Source: Candidatus Eiseniibacteriota bacterium (GTDB lineage Bacteria; Eisenbacteria; RBG-16-71-46). From it: a stretch of DNA of 64,000 nucleotides. The stretch lies in assembly GCA_031364845.1 (NCBI GenBank), contig JANLWX010000018.1:12265-76264 (forward strand), in the 5' to 3' direction. The notes under the pieces were generated by a model. That model made no database searches. It was not told the DNA's origin and was given only the letters and a program-made list of their open reading frames with translations. Shown piece after piece: positions 5,941 to 49,836 of the stretch. A program made the position numbers and the translations under genes. The stretch's first letter is position 1; each line of letters starts with the position of its first letter.

Positions 5941-6876
5941 TCACGAGAACCCACCCGCGCTGCGGGCGGCGAGCACGATCGCGAGCACCACGGCACCCAC
6001 CCACACGTTCACCTTGAAGAACGCGAGGTTCACGTTCTCGGCCCAGCGTTGTTCGAGGAACAACAGCACCCCCGCGACCGCGAGCAGGATGCCGGTTGCG
6101 ATCTGCGCCGCGACGGCGGCTCCCAAACCCGAGACATCTGCGACGGTCTGCGGAGTCGCGACGCGAAGCACGGCGAGGGCCGCCCCGACCAGGCAAGCGA
6201 ACGCCGCAAGGTGGAGCACCGCGGACAGCCGCAACGCGCGGTCGCGGCCGAGCCACGCCGCCATCGAATGCACGTGGTGCTCGCGGTCGAACGACTCATC
6301 GAGCGTGGCGTAGATGATGTCGAACCCGCTCACCCACAAGAGCGCGAACGCCGCGAGCCACAGCGCGGGAACGATCGCGCCGAGATCCGGATGCGCGGCT
6401 GCGAAGCCCGCGAGCGGTGCGAGTGCGAGTGCGACGCCGACTCCGAAGTGGCACAGCGGCGTGAAGCGCTTGAGGTAGGGATAGAGCGCGAACACCGCGA
6501 GCGGCACCGGCGAGACGAGGAGGTACCAGCGGCCGAGCAGAGCACACGCCGCGAGATAAGCGGCGATGCTCACCAGCAGCAGCGTCACCGCTTCTGCGAG
6601 TTTCATCGCACCCGCCGGCAGCTCGCGAACCCGAGTGCGCGGATTGAGCGCATCGAGCCGGCGATCGACGAGCCGGTTGAGCGCCATCGCCGCAGTACGC
6701 GCCGCGACCGCCGCGACCGCGATCAGCGCCCAGCGGCTCACGCTCATCGCGCGGCCCGGCGCCGAGAAGATGCCGGCGAGAATCAGCGGCAGCGAGAACA
6801 ACGTGTGCTCGAAGCGCACGAACGACGCATACGTGCGCATCCGTCCGCGGGCCACCGGGATCGACGCGGTCGTCAT
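5941..6876 (-). CDS. UbiA-family aromatic prenyltransferase (MqnP/UbiA/MenA-like)
   Basis: 311-aa polytopic membrane protein with UbiA-family features (NRLVDRRLDALNPRT, DIIYATLD). Start ATG overlaps the stop of the upstream VKOR gene. Confidence 0.8.
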   Translation of the reverse strand: MTTASIPVARGRMRTYASFVRFEHTLFSLPLILAGIFSAPGRAMSVSRWALIAVAAVAARTAAMALNRLVDRRLDALNPRTRVRELPAGAMKLAEAVTLLLVSIAAYLAACALLGRWYLLVSPVPLAVFALYPYLKRFTPLCHFGVGVALALAPLAGFAAAHPDLGAIVPALWLAAFALLWVSGFDIIYATLDESFDREHHVHSMAAWLGRDRALRLSAVLHLAAFACLVGAALAVLRVATPQTVADVSGLGAAVAAQIATGILLAVAGVLLFLEQRWAENVNLAFFKVNVWVGAVVLAIVLAARSAGGFS

Positions 6877-10476: not shown

Positions 10477-11079
10477 ATGCGGAGCGATCGAACGCGCGAG
10501 ATTTTGAGCTTCATCGAGGACTTCACGCGCGAGCGCGGATATCCGCCAACCATTCGAGAGATCGGCAAGGCGTTTTCGATCGCGTCGACGAACGGCGTTC
10601 GCTTCCACCTTCACAAGCTCGAGAAGCAGGGCATGTTGAAACGGAGCGGAAAGATCTCCCGGGGGATCGAGAGCATGCGCGCCGTGACGCCGGTGACCGG
10701 CGGAATTCCGATTCTCGGTCGCGTGGCGGCAGGTCAGCCAATCTCGGCGGACCAATCGTATGACGGCACACTCGAAATCGATGACCTCTTTGGTCGGCCC
10801 GGCGAACTGTTCGCATTGCTCGTGAAGGGTGACAGCATGATCGGCGCGGGCATCTACGAGAACGATCACGTCGTCGTGCGGCATCAGGAAACGGCGGCGG
10901 CTGGCGAAATGGTGGTGGCGCTGATCGAAGACGAAGCGACCGTCAAATATTTCCAGCCCAAGAGTGATCGCGTCGAGCTGGTCCCAGCGAATCCGAAGTA
11001 CCAGCCGATCGTCGTCCGATCCGATGAAGAGCTTCGATTGCTGGGAGTTGTTCGAGGAGTGGTTCGCGTCATCAACTGA
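10477..11079 (+). CDS. lexA: LexA repressor (SOS response)
   Basis: 200 aa; N-terminal wHTH (REILSFIEDFTRERGYPPTIREIGKAF). C-terminal S24 peptidase with AG cleavage site and Ser/Lys dyad region (VKGDSMIGAGI ... ATVKYF). Confidence 0.9.
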   Translation: MRSDRTREILSFIEDFTRERGYPPTIREIGKAFSIASTNGVRFHLHKLEKQGMLKRSGKISRGIESMRAVTPVTGGIPILGRVAAGQPISADQSYDGTLEIDDLFGRPGELFALLVKGDSMIGAGIYENDHVVVRHQETAAAGEMVVALIEDEATVKYFQPKSDRVELVPANPKYQPIVVRSDEELRLLGVVRGVVRVIN

Positions 11080-11099: not shown

Positions 11100-11126
11100 A
11101 ATGGGAGCTCGCGCTCCCATTTTTTC
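11100..11126 (+). terminator. Rho-independent terminator downstream of lexA
   Basis: aATGGGAGC-tcgc-GCTCCCAT followed by TTTTTT. Confidence 0.6.
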
Positions 11127-42413: not shown

Positions 42414-44270
42414 ATGGAGCCCACCCCCGCACCTCCCGCGCGCCGCCCACGTCCGGGCGTCCTGCCCATAGTCCTCGCGGTGATCGGCGTGGCCGCCATC
42501 GGAGTGTGGGTGCTGCGGCCGATCATCACGAACCTGGTCGCCGGCAAGTTGCGCGCGGCCGCCGCCGCGCGTGATCTCACGGCAACGTGGCGTTCGCTGG
42601 AAGTCGGGTTCGGTACCGCGCGGATCGGCGATCTCTCTCTTTCATCGGCGGTGGGAGACACCGTGCTCGCGGTGCGGAACCTGTCGGTCGCGATCGCCCC
42701 GCTCTCGATGCTGGTGCTGCGACCGCGGCCACGCTCGATCACGCTCGACAGCGCGCGCTTCACGATTCGCGCGCGAGGCCCGGCGGATTCCGACACGCTC
42801 GATCCGAATCCACCGCCGCCGCCTTCACCGCGCCGCGGGCGAACTGATCACCCGGAGCGATCCCGGCGCCTCGTGAACGCGGTGCATCAGGCGGTGCGCC
42901 TGCTGTTCATCCCTGCACACCAGCTGCCGCGCGTGCGCATGGCGCACCTCACGATCACTCAGGCGTCATCCGAGCCGGGCACGGCAACGCGCACGGTCGA
43001 CATCGACACGCTCACGGCCGATCCCACCGCCGCGGGCATCGGTCTCGGCATCCGCGGAACGCTGCGGGCGGATCAGGTGGTCCCGTTCTCGGCAACCGCC
43101 ACGTACGGCCGCGACGATCGCCTCGCGGGTCACGCGCGTTTCATGCTGCCCGCGGCTCGCGGCGGTGAACGCGAAACCCTGGCAATGGAGATCGACGGGG
43201 TGCTCTCGCAGGACCGGCGCGCCCGCGTCGCGCGCCTCGGCGAAGCGACGCGCGTGAGCGTGGGCGCGCTGCCGATCGGAGTCGCGGGCGCGGTGTGGCA
43301 GCGCGGACCGCGATTCGAACTCGCGATCACCGCCGACAGCGTCACCTCGGACCAGATCCACCGGAGCCTGCCCGCGTCGCTGCTGGGCCCGTTGCTGGAT
43401 GTCTCGACGCGCGGATCATTCGACTACCGCCTGCACTTCGATCTCGACCTCGCGCGACCCGAGGCCGTCGACTTCACCGCCGACGTGATCCCGAATGCGC
43501 TGCGTCTGGATTCGTCGACACGTCTGCGGCTCACGGGGCTCGCCGCTCCTTTCACCGCCGTGATCCATCTGCCGCGCCACACGACCACGCGCGATCTCTC
43601 GCCGGCCAATCCGCACTACCGCGCGTTCGACGACATCGATTCGCTGCTCACGCACGCCGTCGTGACGAACGAGGACGGGGGCTTCTTCCGCCATCGCGGC
43701 TTCAACACCGAAGCGGTGAAGCAATCGATCGCCGAGAACCTGCGGGCCGGGGCGTTCCGGCGCGGCGCCGGCACCATCACGATGCAGCTCGCGCGCAATC
43801 TGTACCTCGGCCACCAGCGCACGCTCGCGCGCAAGATGCAGGAGGTCGTGCTGGCATGGGTGCTCGAACACCTGACCGGTGTCGGCAAGCGCCGCCTGTT
43901 GGAGATCTACTTCAACATCATCGAGTGGGGTCCGGGGGTTCACGGCGCCGACGAAGCGGCGCACTACTACTTCGGTCGCGACGCTTCGCGCCTGACGATC
44001 GACGAGTCGCTGTTCCTCGCGACGATCGTTCCCTCGCCGTTGAAGTGGCGCTACCGCTTCGACTCGGAAGGCGCGCTGCGCCCGTTCGCGCAGGCGCAGA
44101 TGCACTTCATCGGCCGCGCGATGATCGCGAAAGGCTGGCTCGATGCGGCCATGCTTCCCGCAGCGGATCAATTACGAGTCGAGCTGCGAGGTCCCGCGCG
44201 CGACGTGCTGCACCCGCCCGCGCCCGGCGCGCCTCGAACCGTCGAAGCGCTGGTGCCGTTCCTGCCATGA
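42414..44270 (+). CDS. Membrane-anchored protein with C-terminal GT51 peptidoglycan transglycosylase domain and ~350-aa N-terminal AsmA-like extension; no transpeptidase
   Basis: TM helix VLPIVLAVIGVAAIGVWVL. GT51 motifs EDGGFFRHRGFN and GAGTITMQLARNLYL. Confidence 0.7.
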   Translation: MEPTPAPPARRPRPGVLPIVLAVIGVAAIGVWVLRPIITNLVAGKLRAAAAARDLTATWRSLEVGFGTARIGDLSLSSAVGDTVLAVRNLSVAIAPLSMLVLRPRPRSITLDSARFTIRARGPADSDTLDPNPPPPPSPRRGRTDHPERSRRLVNAVHQAVRLLFIPAHQLPRVRMAHLTITQASSEPGTATRTVDIDTLTADPTAAGIGLGIRGTLRADQVVPFSATATYGRDDRLAGHARFMLPAARGGERETLAMEIDGVLSQDRRARVARLGEATRVSVGALPIGVAGAVWQRGPRFELAITADSVTSDQIHRSLPASLLGPLLDVSTRGSFDYRLHFDLDLARPEAVDFTADVIPNALRLDSSTRLRLTGLAAPFTAVIHLPRHTTTRDLSPANPHYRAFDDIDSLLTHAVVTNEDGGFFRHRGFNTEAVKQSIAENLRAGAFRRGAGTITMQLARNLYLGHQRTLARKMQEVVLAWVLEHLTGVGKRRLLEIYFNIIEWGPGVHGADEAAHYYFGRDASRLTIDESLFLATIVPSPLKWRYRFDSEGALRPFAQAQMHFIGRAMIAKGWLDAAMLPAADQLRVELRGPARDVLHPPAPGAPRTVEALVPFLP

Positions 44271-46177
44271 GCCGGGCTTCTCAGATCCGCGACCGTCAGG
44301 CAGCGCCACGACCGACGCCGCCCGCGGAACTTCTTGCGCCGCCGGCGGACTCGGCGCTTCGCGACACGGCATGGCTCGTCTGTGGCGGCCTCGCGCTTCT
44401 GGTATTGCTGTGGACCTGCCGCGGATATCCGCGTGGCATTCCGGTCGCTGACGACTACAGCTTCCTCGCGTGGCGCGCGTTCCATCCACTCGACCTGTTT
44501 GATTCGATGGGCGCGACGTACTACTGGCGACCGCTGAGCCGTCAGCTCTACTTCTCCGTGTTCGGCCGCACGCTGCTCGAAGCGCCATGGATCGCGGCAT
44601 TCGCGCATGCCGGCATGCTGCTTCTTACCTACGCCGCGCTGTGGCGCATCGCGCGGCGCGGCTTCTCCGCTCCGATCGCGACGGCGATCGCCGTGTTCCC
44701 GCTGCTGTCCGAGCCGGCGCGCGCGCTGCTCGCGTGGCCGAGCGGAGCGCAGCATCTGCTCGCCGGAATGTTCGCGGCACTGGCGCTTCACGAAGCATTT
44801 GCCGCGCGCGCGATCACCGCACTCCTCTTCGCGGGACTGGGCATGTTGTCCCACGAGTCGGGGGCACTCGCGCTGTGCGCGGTGCCCGCGATCGCCGGGT
44901 GGCAACGATATCGCGCCGGGAACGAGGCATCTTCGGATGCGCGCCGCATGACACGTCACGTCGCGGCGGCCATGATCGGGGCGCTCGCGATCGGCGCGCT
45001 GTGGGTGTTCGGCTACAGGACCGCGCAGGTGCACGGCGTCGCGTTGCCACCTCGAGCGCCGGAAGGTCTTTCGCTCTTGCGCCTCGCCGATCTCGGTTCG
45101 CGCGCGATCCCGGCCGCGCTCGATCTCGAAGACCTCGCGCCGGTCGCGCGCACCACGCTCTCGATCGGCTACGTGTTGATCGCAGCGCTCGCGCTGATGT
45201 GCGTCATCGCGCTGCCCGCGCGCCGCCGGGTTCGCGCGCTCACGTTCGGTGCTGCGGGACTCGCGTGGTTCGTGCTCGGAGCTCTTCCGCTTTCGCAGTT
45301 GCTCCCCGACTGGAACGCGTGGCGCGCATGGTTGCCGACCCTCGGCCTCGGATTGGGACTGGGCGCGGCGCTCGCGTCCCTGCATCCGGGTCTTGCGATC
45401 GGATTCGCGGGATTGCGTCTGGTGGCGCTGGTGTTCGCTTCGCCTGGCCCGGCGATGGTCGCCATCGCGGCACCCGCGACCCCATCGCACATGTCGTACC
45501 GCCGACTGGTTCGGCTCCAGCGCACGGTCGAGTCGACTCGGCAAGCCATGCTCGCCATGCACCCGGCGCTGCCACGCGATGCCGCGGTCCGGTTCTGGAA
45601 CCTGCCGCGGCTCGCCGAAGTCGGCTTTCAGGAGCATGCAGCACTGCGCGTGTGGTACCGCGACTCCACGCTCACATGGGGCCGCTTCGGCGGCGTCGGG
45701 GGGCTGGACCAGAAAGTCGATGCGCTCGTGGAATATCGGGACAACACGGCTGCGCCGGCCCAGGCCCTCGAAAGCCCGGCGTTCGAAGCCTTCCTGCGGG
45801 GAGGCAATGCAATGATGGCGGGCCGCCTCGAAGAAGCCGAAGCCGAGTTCCAGCGCGCCGAGGGCGCAACCCGAACGCGCGGCCTGCTCTACGCCTCGCT
45901 CGCGTTCAATCGCTCGTGGCTCGCGGTCGATCGCCGGGAACCGGCGCGCGCGGAGTCGTTGCTTCGGGTTTCGCGGGAGTCCGGCCAGAAGGCAGATGCC
46001 GACTACTGGGCGCTCGTGGCCCGCATCGCCATCGAACGCAACAATCGGCCAACCGCGACCGCGGCGCTCTCTCGCTGCCTGGCACTCGAACCCAACCACG
46101 TGATGGGGCGCGAGATCGCCCGTGTTCTGGCGGCAAACGGAAGCCCGCCGGGCAATGCCGGGGAACAAACGCGTTGA
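44267..46177 (+). CDS. Second GT-C-fold-like/TPR membrane protein, paralog of 30166..32253
   Basis: ADDYSFL and YWRPLSRQLYF motifs and matching TM topology. ATG overlaps the stop of the transglycosylase gene (ATGA). Confidence 0.5.
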   Translation: MSRASQIRDRQAAPRPTPPAELLAPPADSALRDTAWLVCGGLALLVLLWTCRGYPRGIPVADDYSFLAWRAFHPLDLFDSMGATYYWRPLSRQLYFSVFGRTLLEAPWIAAFAHAGMLLLTYAALWRIARRGFSAPIATAIAVFPLLSEPARALLAWPSGAQHLLAGMFAALALHEAFAARAITALLFAGLGMLSHESGALALCAVPAIAGWQRYRAGNEASSDARRMTRHVAAAMIGALAIGALWVFGYRTAQVHGVALPPRAPEGLSLLRLADLGSRAIPAALDLEDLAPVARTTLSIGYVLIAALALMCVIALPARRRVRALTFGAAGLAWFVLGALPLSQLLPDWNAWRAWLPTLGLGLGLGAALASLHPGLAIGFAGLRLVALVFASPGPAMVAIAAPATPSHMSYRRLVRLQRTVESTRQAMLAMHPALPRDAAVRFWNLPRLAEVGFQEHAALRVWYRDSTLTWGRFGGVGGLDQKVDALVEYRDNTAAPAQALESPAFEAFLRGGNAMMAGRLEEAEAEFQRAEGATRTRGLLYASLAFNRSWLAVDRREPARAESLLRVSRESGQKADADYWALVARIAIERNNRPTATAALSRCLALEPNHVMGREIARVLAANGSPPGNAGEQTR

Positions 46178-46210
46178 CAGGACACCCCCCGAGGCCCCAA
46201 TCTTCGGCCC

Positions 46211-46276
46211 ATGCAGACGACACACCGGCACCATTCGCATAGTCATCACGGCCCGACAGGCCGTGGATGCATGTGA
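46211..46276 (+). CDS. Candidate his operon leader peptide MQTTHRHHSHSHHGPTGRGCM
   Basis: 6 His in a 9-codon stretch, positioned 150-210 nt upstream of hisG and followed by alternative hairpins. Confidence 0.45.
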   Translation: MQTTHRHHSHSHHGPTGRGCM

Positions 46277-46318
46277 TTGCCCGGTTGAACGTCTGAACTA
46301 GCTCGACCTCGTAACCGC

Positions 46319-46358
46319 ACGAATTCACGGCCTGTCCCCCAGGGACGGGTCGTTTCTG
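46319..46358 (+). terminator. Attenuator terminator (region 3:4) upstream of hisG
   Basis: GGCCTGTCCC/GGGACGGGTC ~10-bp stem followed by GUUUCUGUUUU. Region 3 (CACGGCC) can alternatively pair with GGCCGTG at 46259-46265. Confidence 0.5.
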
Positions 46359-46423
46359 TTTTCCCCCCAATAAGATGCCCATGCCGTCGACGACGTCGTC
46401 ACGGGCCATATCAGGAGTTGTCG

Positions 46424-47290
46424 ATGCTCAGAATCGCATTGCCCAACAAGGGCCGGCTCGCCGTAGAGACCCGGGAGCTGTTCGAGGACGCCGGCCTAGA
46501 TGTCCGCCTCACCAGCGATCGCGCGCTCACTGCGTCGCTCGGCGGCGAGTTCCAGGCGCTGTTCGTGCGCGCCCAGGACATTCCGGTGTTCGTCGCCGAC
46601 GGCGCCGCCGATGCCGGCGTGACCGGACGCGATCTGATCTGCGAGTCCGAGTGCGGGCTCGATTCGCGCATCGACCTCGGCTTCGGGCGCTGCCGCATGG
46701 TCGTCGCCACGCGCGAGGACAGCAGCGTGCGATCGGTCGAGGATCTCGAGGGCCGGCCCCGCGTCGCCACGTCGTTCCCGCGCATCACCCGGCGGTTCTT
46801 CGAGGGGCTCGGACGCCCGGTCGAAATCGTTCCCGTGAGCGGCGCGACCGAAGTGGCTCCGCTGCTCGGCGTCGCCGACATCGTGGTCGACCTCACGTCC
46901 ACCGGCTCGACGCTGCGGGTGAACGGACTGCGCGAGATCGGAACCATCCTCGAATCCACCGCACAGCTCGTCACCGGGCGCGACGCGTTCGCGGACGGCT
47001 CCGATCGCGCCCGCGCGCTCGACGAGCTGATCGCCGCGCTGACATCGGTGCTGCGCGCGCGCGGCAAGCGCTACCTCATGGCGAACGTGCCGCGCGTCGC
47101 ACTCGAGGACATCAAGCGGGTGCTGCCCGGGCTCAACGGCCCGACCGTGGTCGACATCCTGAACCACGGCGCCCACGTCGCCGTGCACGCCGTGGTGCAG
47201 GCAGCGGGCATCTATCGCACGATCGCCGAGCTCAAATCGCTCGGCGCCGAAGGTATTCTCGTCACCCGCATCGAGAGGCTCATGCCATGA
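46424..47290 (+). CDS. hisG: ATP phosphoribosyltransferase, long form
   Basis: MLRIALPNKGRL N-terminus and C-terminal regulatory domain. RBS CAGGAG 6 nt upstream of ATG 46424. Confidence 0.9.
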   Translation: MLRIALPNKGRLAVETRELFEDAGLDVRLTSDRALTASLGGEFQALFVRAQDIPVFVADGAADAGVTGRDLICESECGLDSRIDLGFGRCRMVVATREDSSVRSVEDLEGRPRVATSFPRITRRFFEGLGRPVEIVPVSGATEVAPLLGVADIVVDLTSTGSTLRVNGLREIGTILESTAQLVTGRDAFADGSDRARALDELIAALTSVLRARGKRYLMANVPRVALEDIKRVLPGLNGPTVVDILNHGAHVAVHAVVQAAGIYRTIAELKSLGAEGILVTRIERLMP

Positions 47291-49836
47291 GAATCTCCGA
47301 GGACCGCAAGGAGAACGTCGGGCTTCCGGTCGCGGCGAGTGCGGCGTTCCTGAGGCGGGCGGCACTGCGCGCGGCACCGGCGTTGCGGTTCACCGGCACG
47401 CTCGAAGGCCTCGGCGAATCCGATCGCGCGCGGCTGCTCGATCGCGGGAACGCATCGGTGAACCCCGCCGTGGCGCAGGTCCGCGCGACCGTCGCGGACA
47501 TCGTTGTCCGCGTGCGGCGTGACGGTGATGCGGCGTTGCGCGAACTCGCGCGCGCCTACGATGGCGTCGATCTCCAAAGCTTCGAAGTGCCGCGCCCGGT
47601 CATCGATGGGGCACTCGCCGCGCTCGATCCGGCGCTGCGGTCCGCACTCGAGCGATCGGCGCGCAACCTGCGCCGCTTCCACGCCGCGCAGTTGCCGGCG
47701 CCGTTCGAAACCGAGACCGAGCCCGGTATCACGCTCGGCTGGCGCGCGGAGCCGCTCGATCGGATCGGCGTGTACGCGCCCGGCGGCACCGCGAGCTACC
47801 CGAGCAGCGTGCTGATGGCCGCGATCCCCGCGCGGGTCGCGGGTGTTCGAGAGGTCGTGCTGTGCTCCCCGCCCGATCGCTCCGGAGCGCCCGCGCCCGC
47901 CGTGCTCGCGGCCGCCGCGATCGCTGGCGTCGATCGCGTGTTCGCACTGGGAGGAGCCGGAGCGATTGCAGCACTCGCCTACGGCACGGCGAGCGTGCCC
48001 CGCGTCGATCGCATCGTCGGGCCCGGCAATCTCTATGTCGCCGCCGCGAAGCTCGCCGTCTCGCGCGACGTGCTGATCGACTCACCGGCCGGGCCGAGCG
48101 AGGTCCTCGTGATCGCCGATGCCACCGCCGACCCCGTGCGCATTGCGCGCGAGTTGCTCGCCCAGGCCGAGCACGACCCGCTCGCGTGCGCCGTGGCGGT
48201 GGCTATCGGCGAACGCGTCGCGGTCTCGATCACGGACGCGCTCACGGACCTGCTCCGCCGCGAGTCCGATCACGGCGGCCGGAACGACATCGTCGCCGCC
48301 GCCTTGAACGACCACGGCGGCGTGCTCGCCGCCGCATCGCTCGACGAGGCGATCGCATTCGCCAACGACTACGCGCCCGAGCATCTGCTGCTCGCGATCG
48401 CGGAGCCGCGCGCGGCACTCGCGCGCGTGCGCCACGCGGGGACCGTGTTTCTCGGCGACGGAGCATCGGTCGTGTTCGGCGACTACATGACCGGCGCCAA
48501 TCATGTGCTGCCCACCGGCGGGACCGCGCGCGCACGCGCGGGACTCTCGACTTTCGATTTCATTCGCACGACGACCTGGCAGGAGATCAGTGCCGGGGCC
48601 GCCGTTCGACTTGCGGACGATGTGGCCTTGTTCGCAGACGCCGAACGGCTCCCCGCACATTCCGCGGCCGCGCGCGCATTCGCAGGGGGTGAGCTCGCTG
48701 ATCTCACCGATCTGCCGCACGCGCGCGTCGCGGACCCGATGGCGGACGAGTCCCGGCACCTGCGCCCGCGCGCGTCTTACGCGGCGATCGCGCTCTACGG
48801 CGGCGAACACATTCCGTGCGCGATCGATCTCTCCGACAACACGAATGCATTCGGCACTCCGCCCTCGGCGCGCCGCGCAATGCGGAGCGCGCCGCGCGAT
48901 GCCGCCACGCGCTATCCGTCGGCCTACGCCGACGCGTTGCGCCGGGAACTCGCGCACTACGCCGGCGTGACGCCGGCCGAGATCGTGACGGGATGCGGAT
49001 CGGACGACATCCTCGATGCGGCGCTGCGCGCGTTCGCAGAGCCGGGCGATCGGGTGGCCCACATGGATCCCACGTTCAGCATGGTGCCGGAGTTTGCCCG
49101 CATGAACGGTCTCGAGCCGGTCGCAGTGCCGCTCGGCCCGGACTTCGACGCGGACTCCGACGCGCTGCTCGCGACGCGCGCGCGCGTCATCTATCTATGC
49201 TCGCCCAACAATCCGACCGGTACGCGGGTGTCCGCGCAGGCGATCGAACGCGTGGTGGCCGCTGCCCCAGGCCTCGTGATCCTCGACCGCGCCTACGCCG
49301 AGTATTGCGCGCTGGCGCCGCTCGCGGGGATCGCATCGGACCGCCTGCTGGTCGTGCGTACGCTGTCCAAGGCGTTCGGGCTCGCGGGGCTGCGGATCGG
49401 CTACGGCATCGGGGCGCCTTCGATGATCGAGGCGATCGCCAAGGCACGCGGGCCGTACAAGGTGAATGCGATCGCGGAGCGCGCGGCGATCGCGGCACTG
49501 ACGCACGATCGTGCATGGGTCGAGGCCGGCGTGCGCGCGGTGCGGCGCAACCGCCACCGTTTCGTGTCCGAGCTTCGATCGCTCGGCTTCGCCCCGCTGC
49601 CGTCGCGCGCGAACTTCGTGCTGCTGCCGGTGCCCGACGCGGCCCACACCGCAGCGCAGCTGCGGGCTCATGGCATCGCGGTGCGCCCGTTCCATGCGCT
49701 CACCGGCATCGGCGATGCACTGCGCATCACGATCGGTCGCCGGCGCGATCTCGACCGCGTTCGCGACGCGCTCGCGGAACTCGTGGGTGAGCGCGCTCCG
49801 GCCGCATCGGGCCCTCCTCCTCAGGAGGCGACGTGA
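47287..49836 (+). CDS. hisD: In-frame fusion of histidinol dehydrogenase (HisD) and histidinol-phosphate aminotransferase (HisC)
   Basis: 849 aa. The N-terminal ~480 aa carry HisD motifs (GPGNLYVAAAK, AEHDPLA). The C-terminal ~365 aa carry HisC motifs (SPNNPTG, the PLP-Lys motif LSKAFGLAGLRIGY). No stop codon between the two. Start ATG overlaps the hisG stop. Confidence 0.8.
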   Translation: MRISEDRKENVGLPVAASAAFLRRAALRAAPALRFTGTLEGLGESDRARLLDRGNASVNPAVAQVRATVADIVVRVRRDGDAALRELARAYDGVDLQSFEVPRPVIDGALAALDPALRSALERSARNLRRFHAAQLPAPFETETEPGITLGWRAEPLDRIGVYAPGGTASYPSSVLMAAIPARVAGVREVVLCSPPDRSGAPAPAVLAAAAIAGVDRVFALGGAGAIAALAYGTASVPRVDRIVGPGNLYVAAAKLAVSRDVLIDSPAGPSEVLVIADATADPVRIARELLAQAEHDPLACAVAVAIGERVAVSITDALTDLLRRESDHGGRNDIVAAALNDHGGVLAAASLDEAIAFANDYAPEHLLLAIAEPRAALARVRHAGTVFLGDGASVVFGDYMTGANHVLPTGGTARARAGLSTFDFIRTTTWQEISAGAAVRLADDVALFADAERLPAHSAAARAFAGGELADLTDLPHARVADPMADESRHLRPRASYAAIALYGGEHIPCAIDLSDNTNAFGTPPSARRAMRSAPRDAATRYPSAYADALRRELAHYAGVTPAEIVTGCGSDDILDAALRAFAEPGDRVAHMDPTFSMVPEFARMNGLEPVAVPLGPDFDADSDALLATRARVIYLCSPNNPTGTRVSAQAIERVVAAAPGLVILDRAYAEYCALAPLAGIASDRLLVVRTLSKAFGLAGLRIGYGIGAPSMIEAIAKARGPYKVNAIAERAAIAALTHDRAWVEAGVRAVRRNRHRFVSELRSLGFAPLPSRANFVLLPVPDAAHTAAQLRAHGIAVRPFHALTGIGDALRITIGRRRDLDRVRDALAELVGERAPAASGPPPQEAT

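Follow-up and report, generated by a model that had tools for sequence, protein, structure and literature searches.

The enterobacterial histidine (his) leader carries seven consecutive His codons and a series of hairpins designated A–F. In Escherichia coli and Salmonella, this leader, hisL, combines a short upstream open reading frame (uORF) with a His run, translated ahead of the polymerase and located directly upstream of hisG as the first operon gene, with mutually exclusive terminator and antiterminator hairpins, the first hairpin carrying the regulatory codons in its 5′ arm. Here, we describe a his leader with the same layout in a 64,000-nucleotide stretch of contig JANLWX010000018.1 from a Candidatus Eiseniibacteriota bacterium (hereafter, the window). 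Judged from modeled folds and from comparison with related loci, this leader very likely acts as a ribosome-mediated (leader-peptide) transcription attenuator controlling the his operon. Unlike the enterobacterial leader, it has an interrupted run of six His in nine codons and three long hairpins; it also lacks a Shine–Dalgarno (SD) sequence, its promoter abuts the start codon, making the uORF probably leaderless, and the hosts of such leaders are Gemmatimonadota and Myxococcota. No sequence or structure similarity to the E. coli/Salmonella leader family RF00514 was detectable, even at E ≤ 10. The element is a new example of a well-known kind of regulator, which leaves the concept of attenuation unchanged and introduces no new mechanism; its contribution would be to add Gemmatimonadota (FCB group) and Myxococcota to the groups in which histidine biosynthesis is controlled by classical leader-peptide attenuation.

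Outside the γ-proteobacteria, His leader-peptide attenuators have been predicted in Firmicutes, including hisZ/hisS* of the Bacillus cereus group, Peptostreptococcaceae and Erysipelotrichales (PMC9413887, PMC2965389). Like the leader described here, these were found by comparative genomics, place a His-codon uORF and a terminator/antiterminator before his genes and do not match RF00514. They differ in belonging to other phyla, in being low-GC with no sequence relationship to it, in carrying 3–5 consecutive His codons and in not being reported as leaderless. An earlier first-pass annotation of the window had presented ribosome-mediated his attenuation as classically proteobacterial; given the Firmicutes predictions, "proteobacterial only" is too strong, and the novelty was overstated. 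Full-text literature searches returned nothing on leader-peptide attenuation in Gemmatimonadetes and nothing relevant on his leader attenuation in Myxococcus, where an earlier mention of the myxobacterial copies is possible.

Two further groups of systems bear comparison. Histidine T-box leaders in Corynebacterium and Lactococcus (PMC9413887, PMC3896937) likewise let the charging state of tRNAHis choose between terminator and antiterminator upstream of his genes, but they bind uncharged tRNA directly and do not need translation; the his leader has no T-box match. Leader peptides lacking an SD sequence are represented by 14 putative examples in Deinococcus deserti, translated from a 5′-terminal AUG or GUG (PMC4007540), and by the ilvB leader peptide of Corynebacterium glutamicum, which has no ribosome-binding site (RBS) (Morbach 2000, cited in PMC10272879). 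In these cases, transcription starts at the leader-peptide start codon or 1 nt from it, before amino-acid biosynthesis or tRNA-synthetase genes, and the text searched mentions no histidine case. Those transcription starts were mapped, whereas that of the his leader is placed by promoter geometry alone. Rfam 15, including His_leader (RF00514) and T-box, gave no match in the window at the gathering score, none at E ≤ 10 within 46000–46600 and none at E ≤ 1 at the leaders of nine related loci, including those of Archangium gephyra and Hyalangium; three sub-threshold hits among the nine were rejected as chance matches.

The leader ORF of the window ends 147 nt before the ATG of a long-form hisG encoding an ATP phosphoribosyltransferase of 288 aa (Pfam HisG, 9.6e-51; HisG_C, 9.1e-22) (Table 1). 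Its His codons are located at 46223, 46229, 46232, 46238, 46244 and 46247. A six-frame scan of the 64 kb over every stop-free stretch of nine codons found no other with six or more His; 0.005 such stretches are expected from base composition, and none of 100 shuffles reached six. Windows with five His in nine codons, at 5986, 8620 and 63872 (minus strand), lie within or antisense to coding sequence and were discarded as not leader-like.

Table 1. Coordinates of the his leader, its promoter and hisG, and of the second strong terminator, counted from the first nucleotide of the window
Feature	Position	Strand	Remarks
Putative −35 hexamer	46174–46179	+	TTGACA; overlaps the stop codon of the upstream gene; similar hexamer in relatives
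Putative −10 hexamer	46198–46203	+	CAATCT; 18-nt spacer; ends 7 nt before ATG; alternative AATCTT with 19-nt spacer
Leader ORF ("hisL")	46211–46276	+	21 codons, MQTTHRHHSHSHHGPTGRGCM followed by stop; ATG 46211, stop TGA 46274–46276; no SD sequence
P1 (regions 1:2, anti-antiterminator)	46214–46295	+	Long imperfect hairpin; −40.5 kcal/mol, z = −4.64
Regulatory His codon run	46223–46249	+	CAC, CAC, CAT, CAT, CAT, CAC; 6 His in 9 codons
Antiterminator (regions 2:3)	46255–46336	+	46255–46290 paired with 46301–46336, about 30 pairs
Intrinsic terminator (regions 3:4)	46327–46363	+	12-bp stem 46327–46353, loop CCA, U-tract TTCTGTTTTC; −21.3 kcal/mol; found by terminator scan
hisG SD sequence	46413–46417	+	AGGAG; read from sequence
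hisG	46424–47290	+	First gene of the his operon; start ATG 46424
Other strong terminator	11102–11119	+	TGGGAGC-TCGC-GCTCCCA + TTTTTT; 20 nt past a LexA-like gene (10477–11079)

The leader can form three mutually exclusive hairpins, P1 (regions 1:2), the antiterminator (2:3) and the terminator (3:4). Nearly all of the uORF lies inside P1, whose 5′ arm holds the His codons, and none of 200 dinucleotide shuffles was equally stable; at the tip of P1, CACGGCC (46247–46253) pairs with GGCCGTG (46259–46265) across a CGACA loop. The antiterminator holds a perfect 14-bp helix between 46255–46268 and 46323–46336, with a 2:3 core duplex of −28.1 kcal/mol, and it overlaps and consumes the 5′ arm of the terminator. 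To mimic a stalled ribosome, positions −15 to +13 relative to the A-site were masked and the minimum-energy fold of the full leader was computed. Placing the A-site at any of His codons 1–5 (46223–46244) yields the antiterminator; leaving the ribosome out, or placing its A-site at the sixth His codon (46247) or the stop (46274), yields P1 plus the terminator or the terminator alone. In the model, the leader thus behaves as expected of a classical attenuator.

These results largely uphold the first-pass annotation, which had proposed a complete 1:2/2:3/3:4 His attenuator upstream of hisG: every element is present, the masked folds fit, and the arrangement is conserved in about 65 species-level genomes, as detailed below. 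Its 21-codon ORF opening at ATG 46211 with six His in nine codons and its CACGGCC-cgaca-GGCCGTG hairpin were confirmed by direct reading, and its view that such a His run is very unlikely by chance agrees with the scan. Folding with and without a mask over the His codons, which it had proposed as a check, shows the leader switching from terminator to antiterminator under the mask. Several details required correction. The region 3 copy of CACGGCC, given as 46316–46322, lies at 46326–46332, a 10-nt slip; the 1:2 and 2:3 pairings both exist, but their supposed 7-bp cores were far too short (2:3 has about 30 bp); the terminator is present, with 12 pairs at 46327–46353 rather than about 10 bp at 46319–46352; and the distance from the U-tract to hisG is about 60 nt, not 66.

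The analysis shows in silico that the sequence elements exist, exclude one another in pairing, are conserved and covary; the transcription start, uORF translation, pausing and histidine response that we infer would be connected as follows. Transcription from TTGACA-N18-CAATCT would start at or within a few nt of the leader AUG at 46211, and the 21-codon uORF, embedded in P1 (46214–46295) with its six His codons in the 5′ arm, would be translated as a leaderless mRNA. When His-tRNAHis is plentiful, the ribosome would reach the stop at 46274 and cover region 2, or would depart and let P1 re-form. Region 3 would then be free for region 4, the terminator with its U-tract (46327–46363) would form, and the polymerase would halt ~60 nt before hisG. 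When His-tRNAHis is scarce, the ribosome would stall at His codons 1–5 and prevent the 5′ arm of P1 from pairing; the 3′ arm of P1 (46255–46290), released in this way, would pair with 46301–46336, the resulting antiterminator would sequester the terminator 5′ arm, and the polymerase would read through into hisG-hisDC-hisH-hisB-...-hisIE.

Related loci were collected through a HisG protein search over one genome per GTDB species, and the best 80 of 207 relatives (61–82% identity) were retained. They are labeled either Gemmatimonadota (one as Ca. Eisenbacteria) or myxobacteria/δ-proteobacteria, with Archangium, Cystobacter, Hyalangium, Myxococcus, Pyxidicoccus and Myxococcaceae among the myxobacterial loci. 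The closest HisG relatives among the matches listed are Gemmatimonadota metagenome-assembled genomes (MAGs) and one MAG labeled Ca. Eisenbacteria; the FCB-group assignment of the first-pass annotation is reasonable. Enough upstream DNA for leader counts was available at 70 of the 80 loci, and all 70 carry an in-frame His-rich uORF 59–150 nt before hisG, typically encoding M..HHHAHxHHG(P/L)TGRG.. or, in myxobacteria, V..HHHHAHHHRP.DG... A strict perfect-stem hairpin with a T-run follows 26–53 nt past the uORF stop in 65 loci; the remaining five have longer hairpins and then T-rich tracts. The median distance to the start of region 2 is 30 nt from the first His codon and 9 nt from the last. The P1 architecture, with the His run in the 5′ arm, was recovered in all 20 representative relatives that were folded (z from −0.7 to −5.4).

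Variants of the leader occur among these relatives. One Gemmatimonadaceae subfamily (MTTFTSLRHAHSHHGLTGRG...), represented by L026 and by L018 (~715–800), has a short run of four His, or three in L018 (RHARTHHG); such leaders may be weakened or decaying attenuators. At L044 (1–100), and also at L064, L070 and L072, the terminator 3′ arm and U-tract occur in 2–3 tandem copies before hisG, with a repeat unit of ~35 nt, CTGACGGGCTTTTTCGTTTT(A/C)GACCACTCATCTA. The tandem arms would provide several alternative "region 4" copies, which may be functional, as repeated chances of termination, or may be a product of slippage.

Stem conservation was quantified in silico on a 65-sequence MAFFT alignment, for which stems other than the terminator and the P1 tip were specified by hand. 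In the terminator columns, 92.9% of cells hold standard pairs, compared with 26–55% when the partners are slid, and the outer pairs covary (146–172: AU 28, GC 23, GU 10; 145–173: AU 21, CG 9). The P1 tip is 74% paired. The lower stem of P1, which contains the His codons, is 78% paired versus 7–19% at odd-column slides; the 59–68% obtained at slides of ±2 is attributable to the GC-repeat periodicity of this stem. Within it, covariation links the third (wobble) position of a His codon to the base with which it pairs (UG 21, UA 18, CG 17). The antiterminator core is nearly invariant: pair 63–151 is GC in 61 sequences and AU in two, the window and the distant locus L079 (65% HisG identity), in both of which a region 2 G-to-A change accompanies a region 3 C-to-U change and the terminator pair becomes G-U. 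A consistent three-way change is found at 66/148/171 in L047. The first-pass annotation had named covariation across hisG upstream regions as a check, and had regarded relatives without His-codon runs or compensatory stem changes as evidence against its proposal; the compensatory changes back the stems, and every one of the 70 loci has a His-rich uORF. In the hisG leader of L031 (~85–110), the terminator GGCCCATCC...GGATGGGCC departs from the family consensus by a compensatory replacement of G-C with A-U in a stem that is invariant elsewhere; the contig stops short of the His run.

Several observations weigh against this reading. In equilibrium folds of the full leader, only 22 of the 65 relatives flip under the His-stall mask, because the local terminator is very stable. 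We therefore treated the decision as kinetic and folded leaders truncated before region 4; mean pairing of region 3 with upstream sequence was 0.55 in free transcripts, 0.56 with the ribosome at the stop and 0.67 on average (0.78 at best) with a His stall, a modest though significant effect (Wilcoxon p about 0.002). Many relatives have their stop codon about 31 nt past the region-2 core, where a terminating ribosome would not cover that core, so that re-formation of P1 must be invoked. RNAalifold on the 65-sequence alignment recovers the terminator and the P1 tip only. Most pairs carry no covariation information, since the terminator and region 2 are largely invariant, and the shuffle controls ignore phylogeny. 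Finally, a generic promoter scan found nothing before the uORF, and the −10 hexamer of the window, CAATCT, is poor and degenerate. In the models, family-wide support for the antiterminator is weaker than that in the window. The invariance of the terminator and region 2 would be best explained by a four-way constraint, in which regions 1 and 3 are alike, as are regions 2 and 4, and each must pair with two partners.

The leader promoter was recognized only through comparison with relatives. With the 70 loci aligned on their uORF start codons, TTGAC(N) is matched at no fewer than five of six positions in 43, the −35/−10 spacer is 17–18 nt in 62, the −10 hexamer fits TAnnnT in 47 (for example, TAGTCT, TACGTT and TAGCAT), and this hexamer ends 6–9 nt before the ATG or GTG in 56. 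An SD sequence before the uORF is absent from the window, and none is conserved among the relatives. A σ70-type promoter ending 6–9 nt before the start codon would make the transcript begin at or near that codon, and the promoter comparison thus indicates that the uORF is probably leaderless. This would explain the "weak RBS" that the first-pass annotation had raised as its principal doubt: no SD sequence is present, and the conserved promoter geometry suggests a leaderless uORF.

The alternative that survives best keeps the same leader-peptide attenuator and places the transcription start further upstream, through read-through from the preceding gene or from a promoter inside it, with the uORF translated from an internal AUG without an SD sequence, for example by S1-dependent or standby initiation. 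The weak −10 of the window, the empty promoter scan and the closeness of the upstream gene, which lies on the same strand and stops just 33 nt short of the uORF, would all suit this arrangement. We nevertheless consider it unlikely, since TTGAC-N17/18-TAnnnT is kept at 6–9 nt before the start across two phyla despite differing upstream genes, no SD-like sequence is conserved before the uORF, and leaderless leader peptides have the precedents in Deinococcus and Corynebacterium described above.

Other explanations dispense with attenuation by a translating ribosome. The small ORF could encode a functional His-rich, for example metal-binding, peptide with its own terminator, hisG being transcribed independently and adjacent only incidentally. 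The motif HHHAHxHHG is indeed conserved across many genomes. However, conservation past the His run is at the nucleotide level: the region-2 motif (A)CGGG is invariant and yet read in all three uORF frames (32, 15 and 18 loci), which indicates that this part of the uORF is conserved as RNA and not as peptide. Likewise, CAUGCGCAUG is a palindrome of His-Ala-His codons that pairs within P1. In more than 15 loci, the terminator stem lies only about 20–26 nt from the hisG start, leaving no room for a separate promoter, so that hisG would be expressed by read-through only. The element, moreover, invariably accompanies hisG and in no case the upstream gene. Taken together, these features make an independent peptide highly improbable.

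We give equally little credence to a ribosome-independent, riboswitch-type leader, either a T-box for tRNAHis or a protein- or ligand-controlled element, in which the His codons would play no part in sensing. In some Actinobacteria and Firmicutes, T-boxes do control his operons (PMC9413887, PMC3896937), and alternative terminator/antiterminator hairpins are common to all these mechanisms. Against this stand the lack of any Rfam match in the window or in the leaders of the nine related loci searched and the length of the leader, only about 150 nt; such a mechanism would also leave unexplained an in-frame His-codon run with start and stop at 70 loci.

Within the 64 kb, strong canonical intrinsic terminators number only two, that of the his leader and the one at 11102; canonical terminators thus appear to be rare in this genome. 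Loci of both phyla share an almost unchanged terminator stem, GCCCGTCC/GGACGGGC, present a single time at each related locus. As a signature of the family, it was nevertheless rejected, because a metagenome scan shows it to be a common, generic and often bidirectional terminator. Only 15 of 144 metagenome matches to GCCCGTCC-N3-8-GGACGGGC-TTTT precede hisG (loci among L081–L200), and about 95 of the 144, all adequately flanked, lack both a His run and hisG. The 15 serve as an independent check: they precede a hisG of the same clade (64–70% identity), with a His-run uORF in all 14 that retain upstream DNA. The generic form of this terminator was also seen on unrelated metagenome contigs, including some from the human gut. 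A chance His-rich ORF beside an ordinary gene-end terminator of the upstream gene, an idea to which the generic use of this stem and T-run lends some color, is effectively refuted by the sequence comparison, given the 0.005 His windows expected in 64 kb, the position of the terminator 150 nt past the upstream stop with a promoter-like site in between, and the persistence of uORF and terminator together with hisG across 65 genomes that have different upstream genes.

With these alternatives set against it, leader-peptide attenuation remains the preferred reading, and the comparative data also bear on its history. The best 80 of the 207 HisG relatives come from two phyla only, and the leaders of both share the CAUGCGCAUG palindrome, the region-2 motif and the terminator stem, which points to a single origin of hisG with its leader. 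A near-identical leader in two phyla with mutually closest HisG suggests, at the sequence level, that hisG and its cis-regulator were transferred between Myxococcota and Gemmatimonadota as one unit. Both phyla are high-GC, and many of these MAGs derive from soil surveys. No homologue of the upstream gene of the window lies beside hisG in any of the 80 loci; with that neighbor unconserved, the leader evidently travels with hisG. For the combined proposition, namely an uncatalogued His-leader RNA family, common to Gemmatimonadota and Myxococcota with mutually closest long-form hisG, that moved as a unit and has a leaderless uORF, we see the case as evenly balanced.

The family is well defined in sequence, with about 65 genomes plus the metagenome copies, and is a candidate for a new Rfam entry that could aid the annotation of his operons. 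Through its promoter-abutting uORF without an SD sequence, it would add a probable example of an attenuator whose sensor is leaderless translation. On a leaderless uORF, a 70S ribosome must load on the 5′-terminal AUG or GUG and catch the polymerase within about 60–120 nt; if this holds, two poorly studied phyla would, through this family, provide a natural system for testing how transcription and translation are coupled on leaderless mRNAs.

The operon headed by the leader spans about 8 kb. On the same strand 3′ of hisG, Pfam identifies a fused hisD-hisC, hisH, hisB, a His_biosynth-family gene, an IMPase (inositol-monophosphatase)-family gene, possibly the histidinol-phosphate phosphatase, and hisIE. 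The hisD-hisC fusion is a single stop-free ORF of 849 aa (47287–49836, plus strand), with Histidinol_dh at residues 62–463 and a class I/II aminotransferase at 513–829. Most relatives have a separate hisD of ~440 aa; an ORF of similar length is seen in just two, L040 and the closest relative, L001, with L062 and L066 as possible further cases.

The gene upstream of the leader (43295–46177, plus strand) has its stop codon within the putative −35 hexamer of the his leader promoter. Its large product appears by sequence to be membrane-protein-like with a TPR-like C-terminus, and its last 625 residues gave no Pfam match. Between the terminator and the hisG SD sequence, a second GC-rich hairpin lies at ~46377–46406 (plus strand), containing the palindrome GACGACGTCGTC and lacking a U-tract. 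Analogous hairpins are present in L001, L003, L015 and L061 and absent where the spacer is only ~20–26 nt; this hairpin may act as a stabilizer or processing element of the read-through mRNA.

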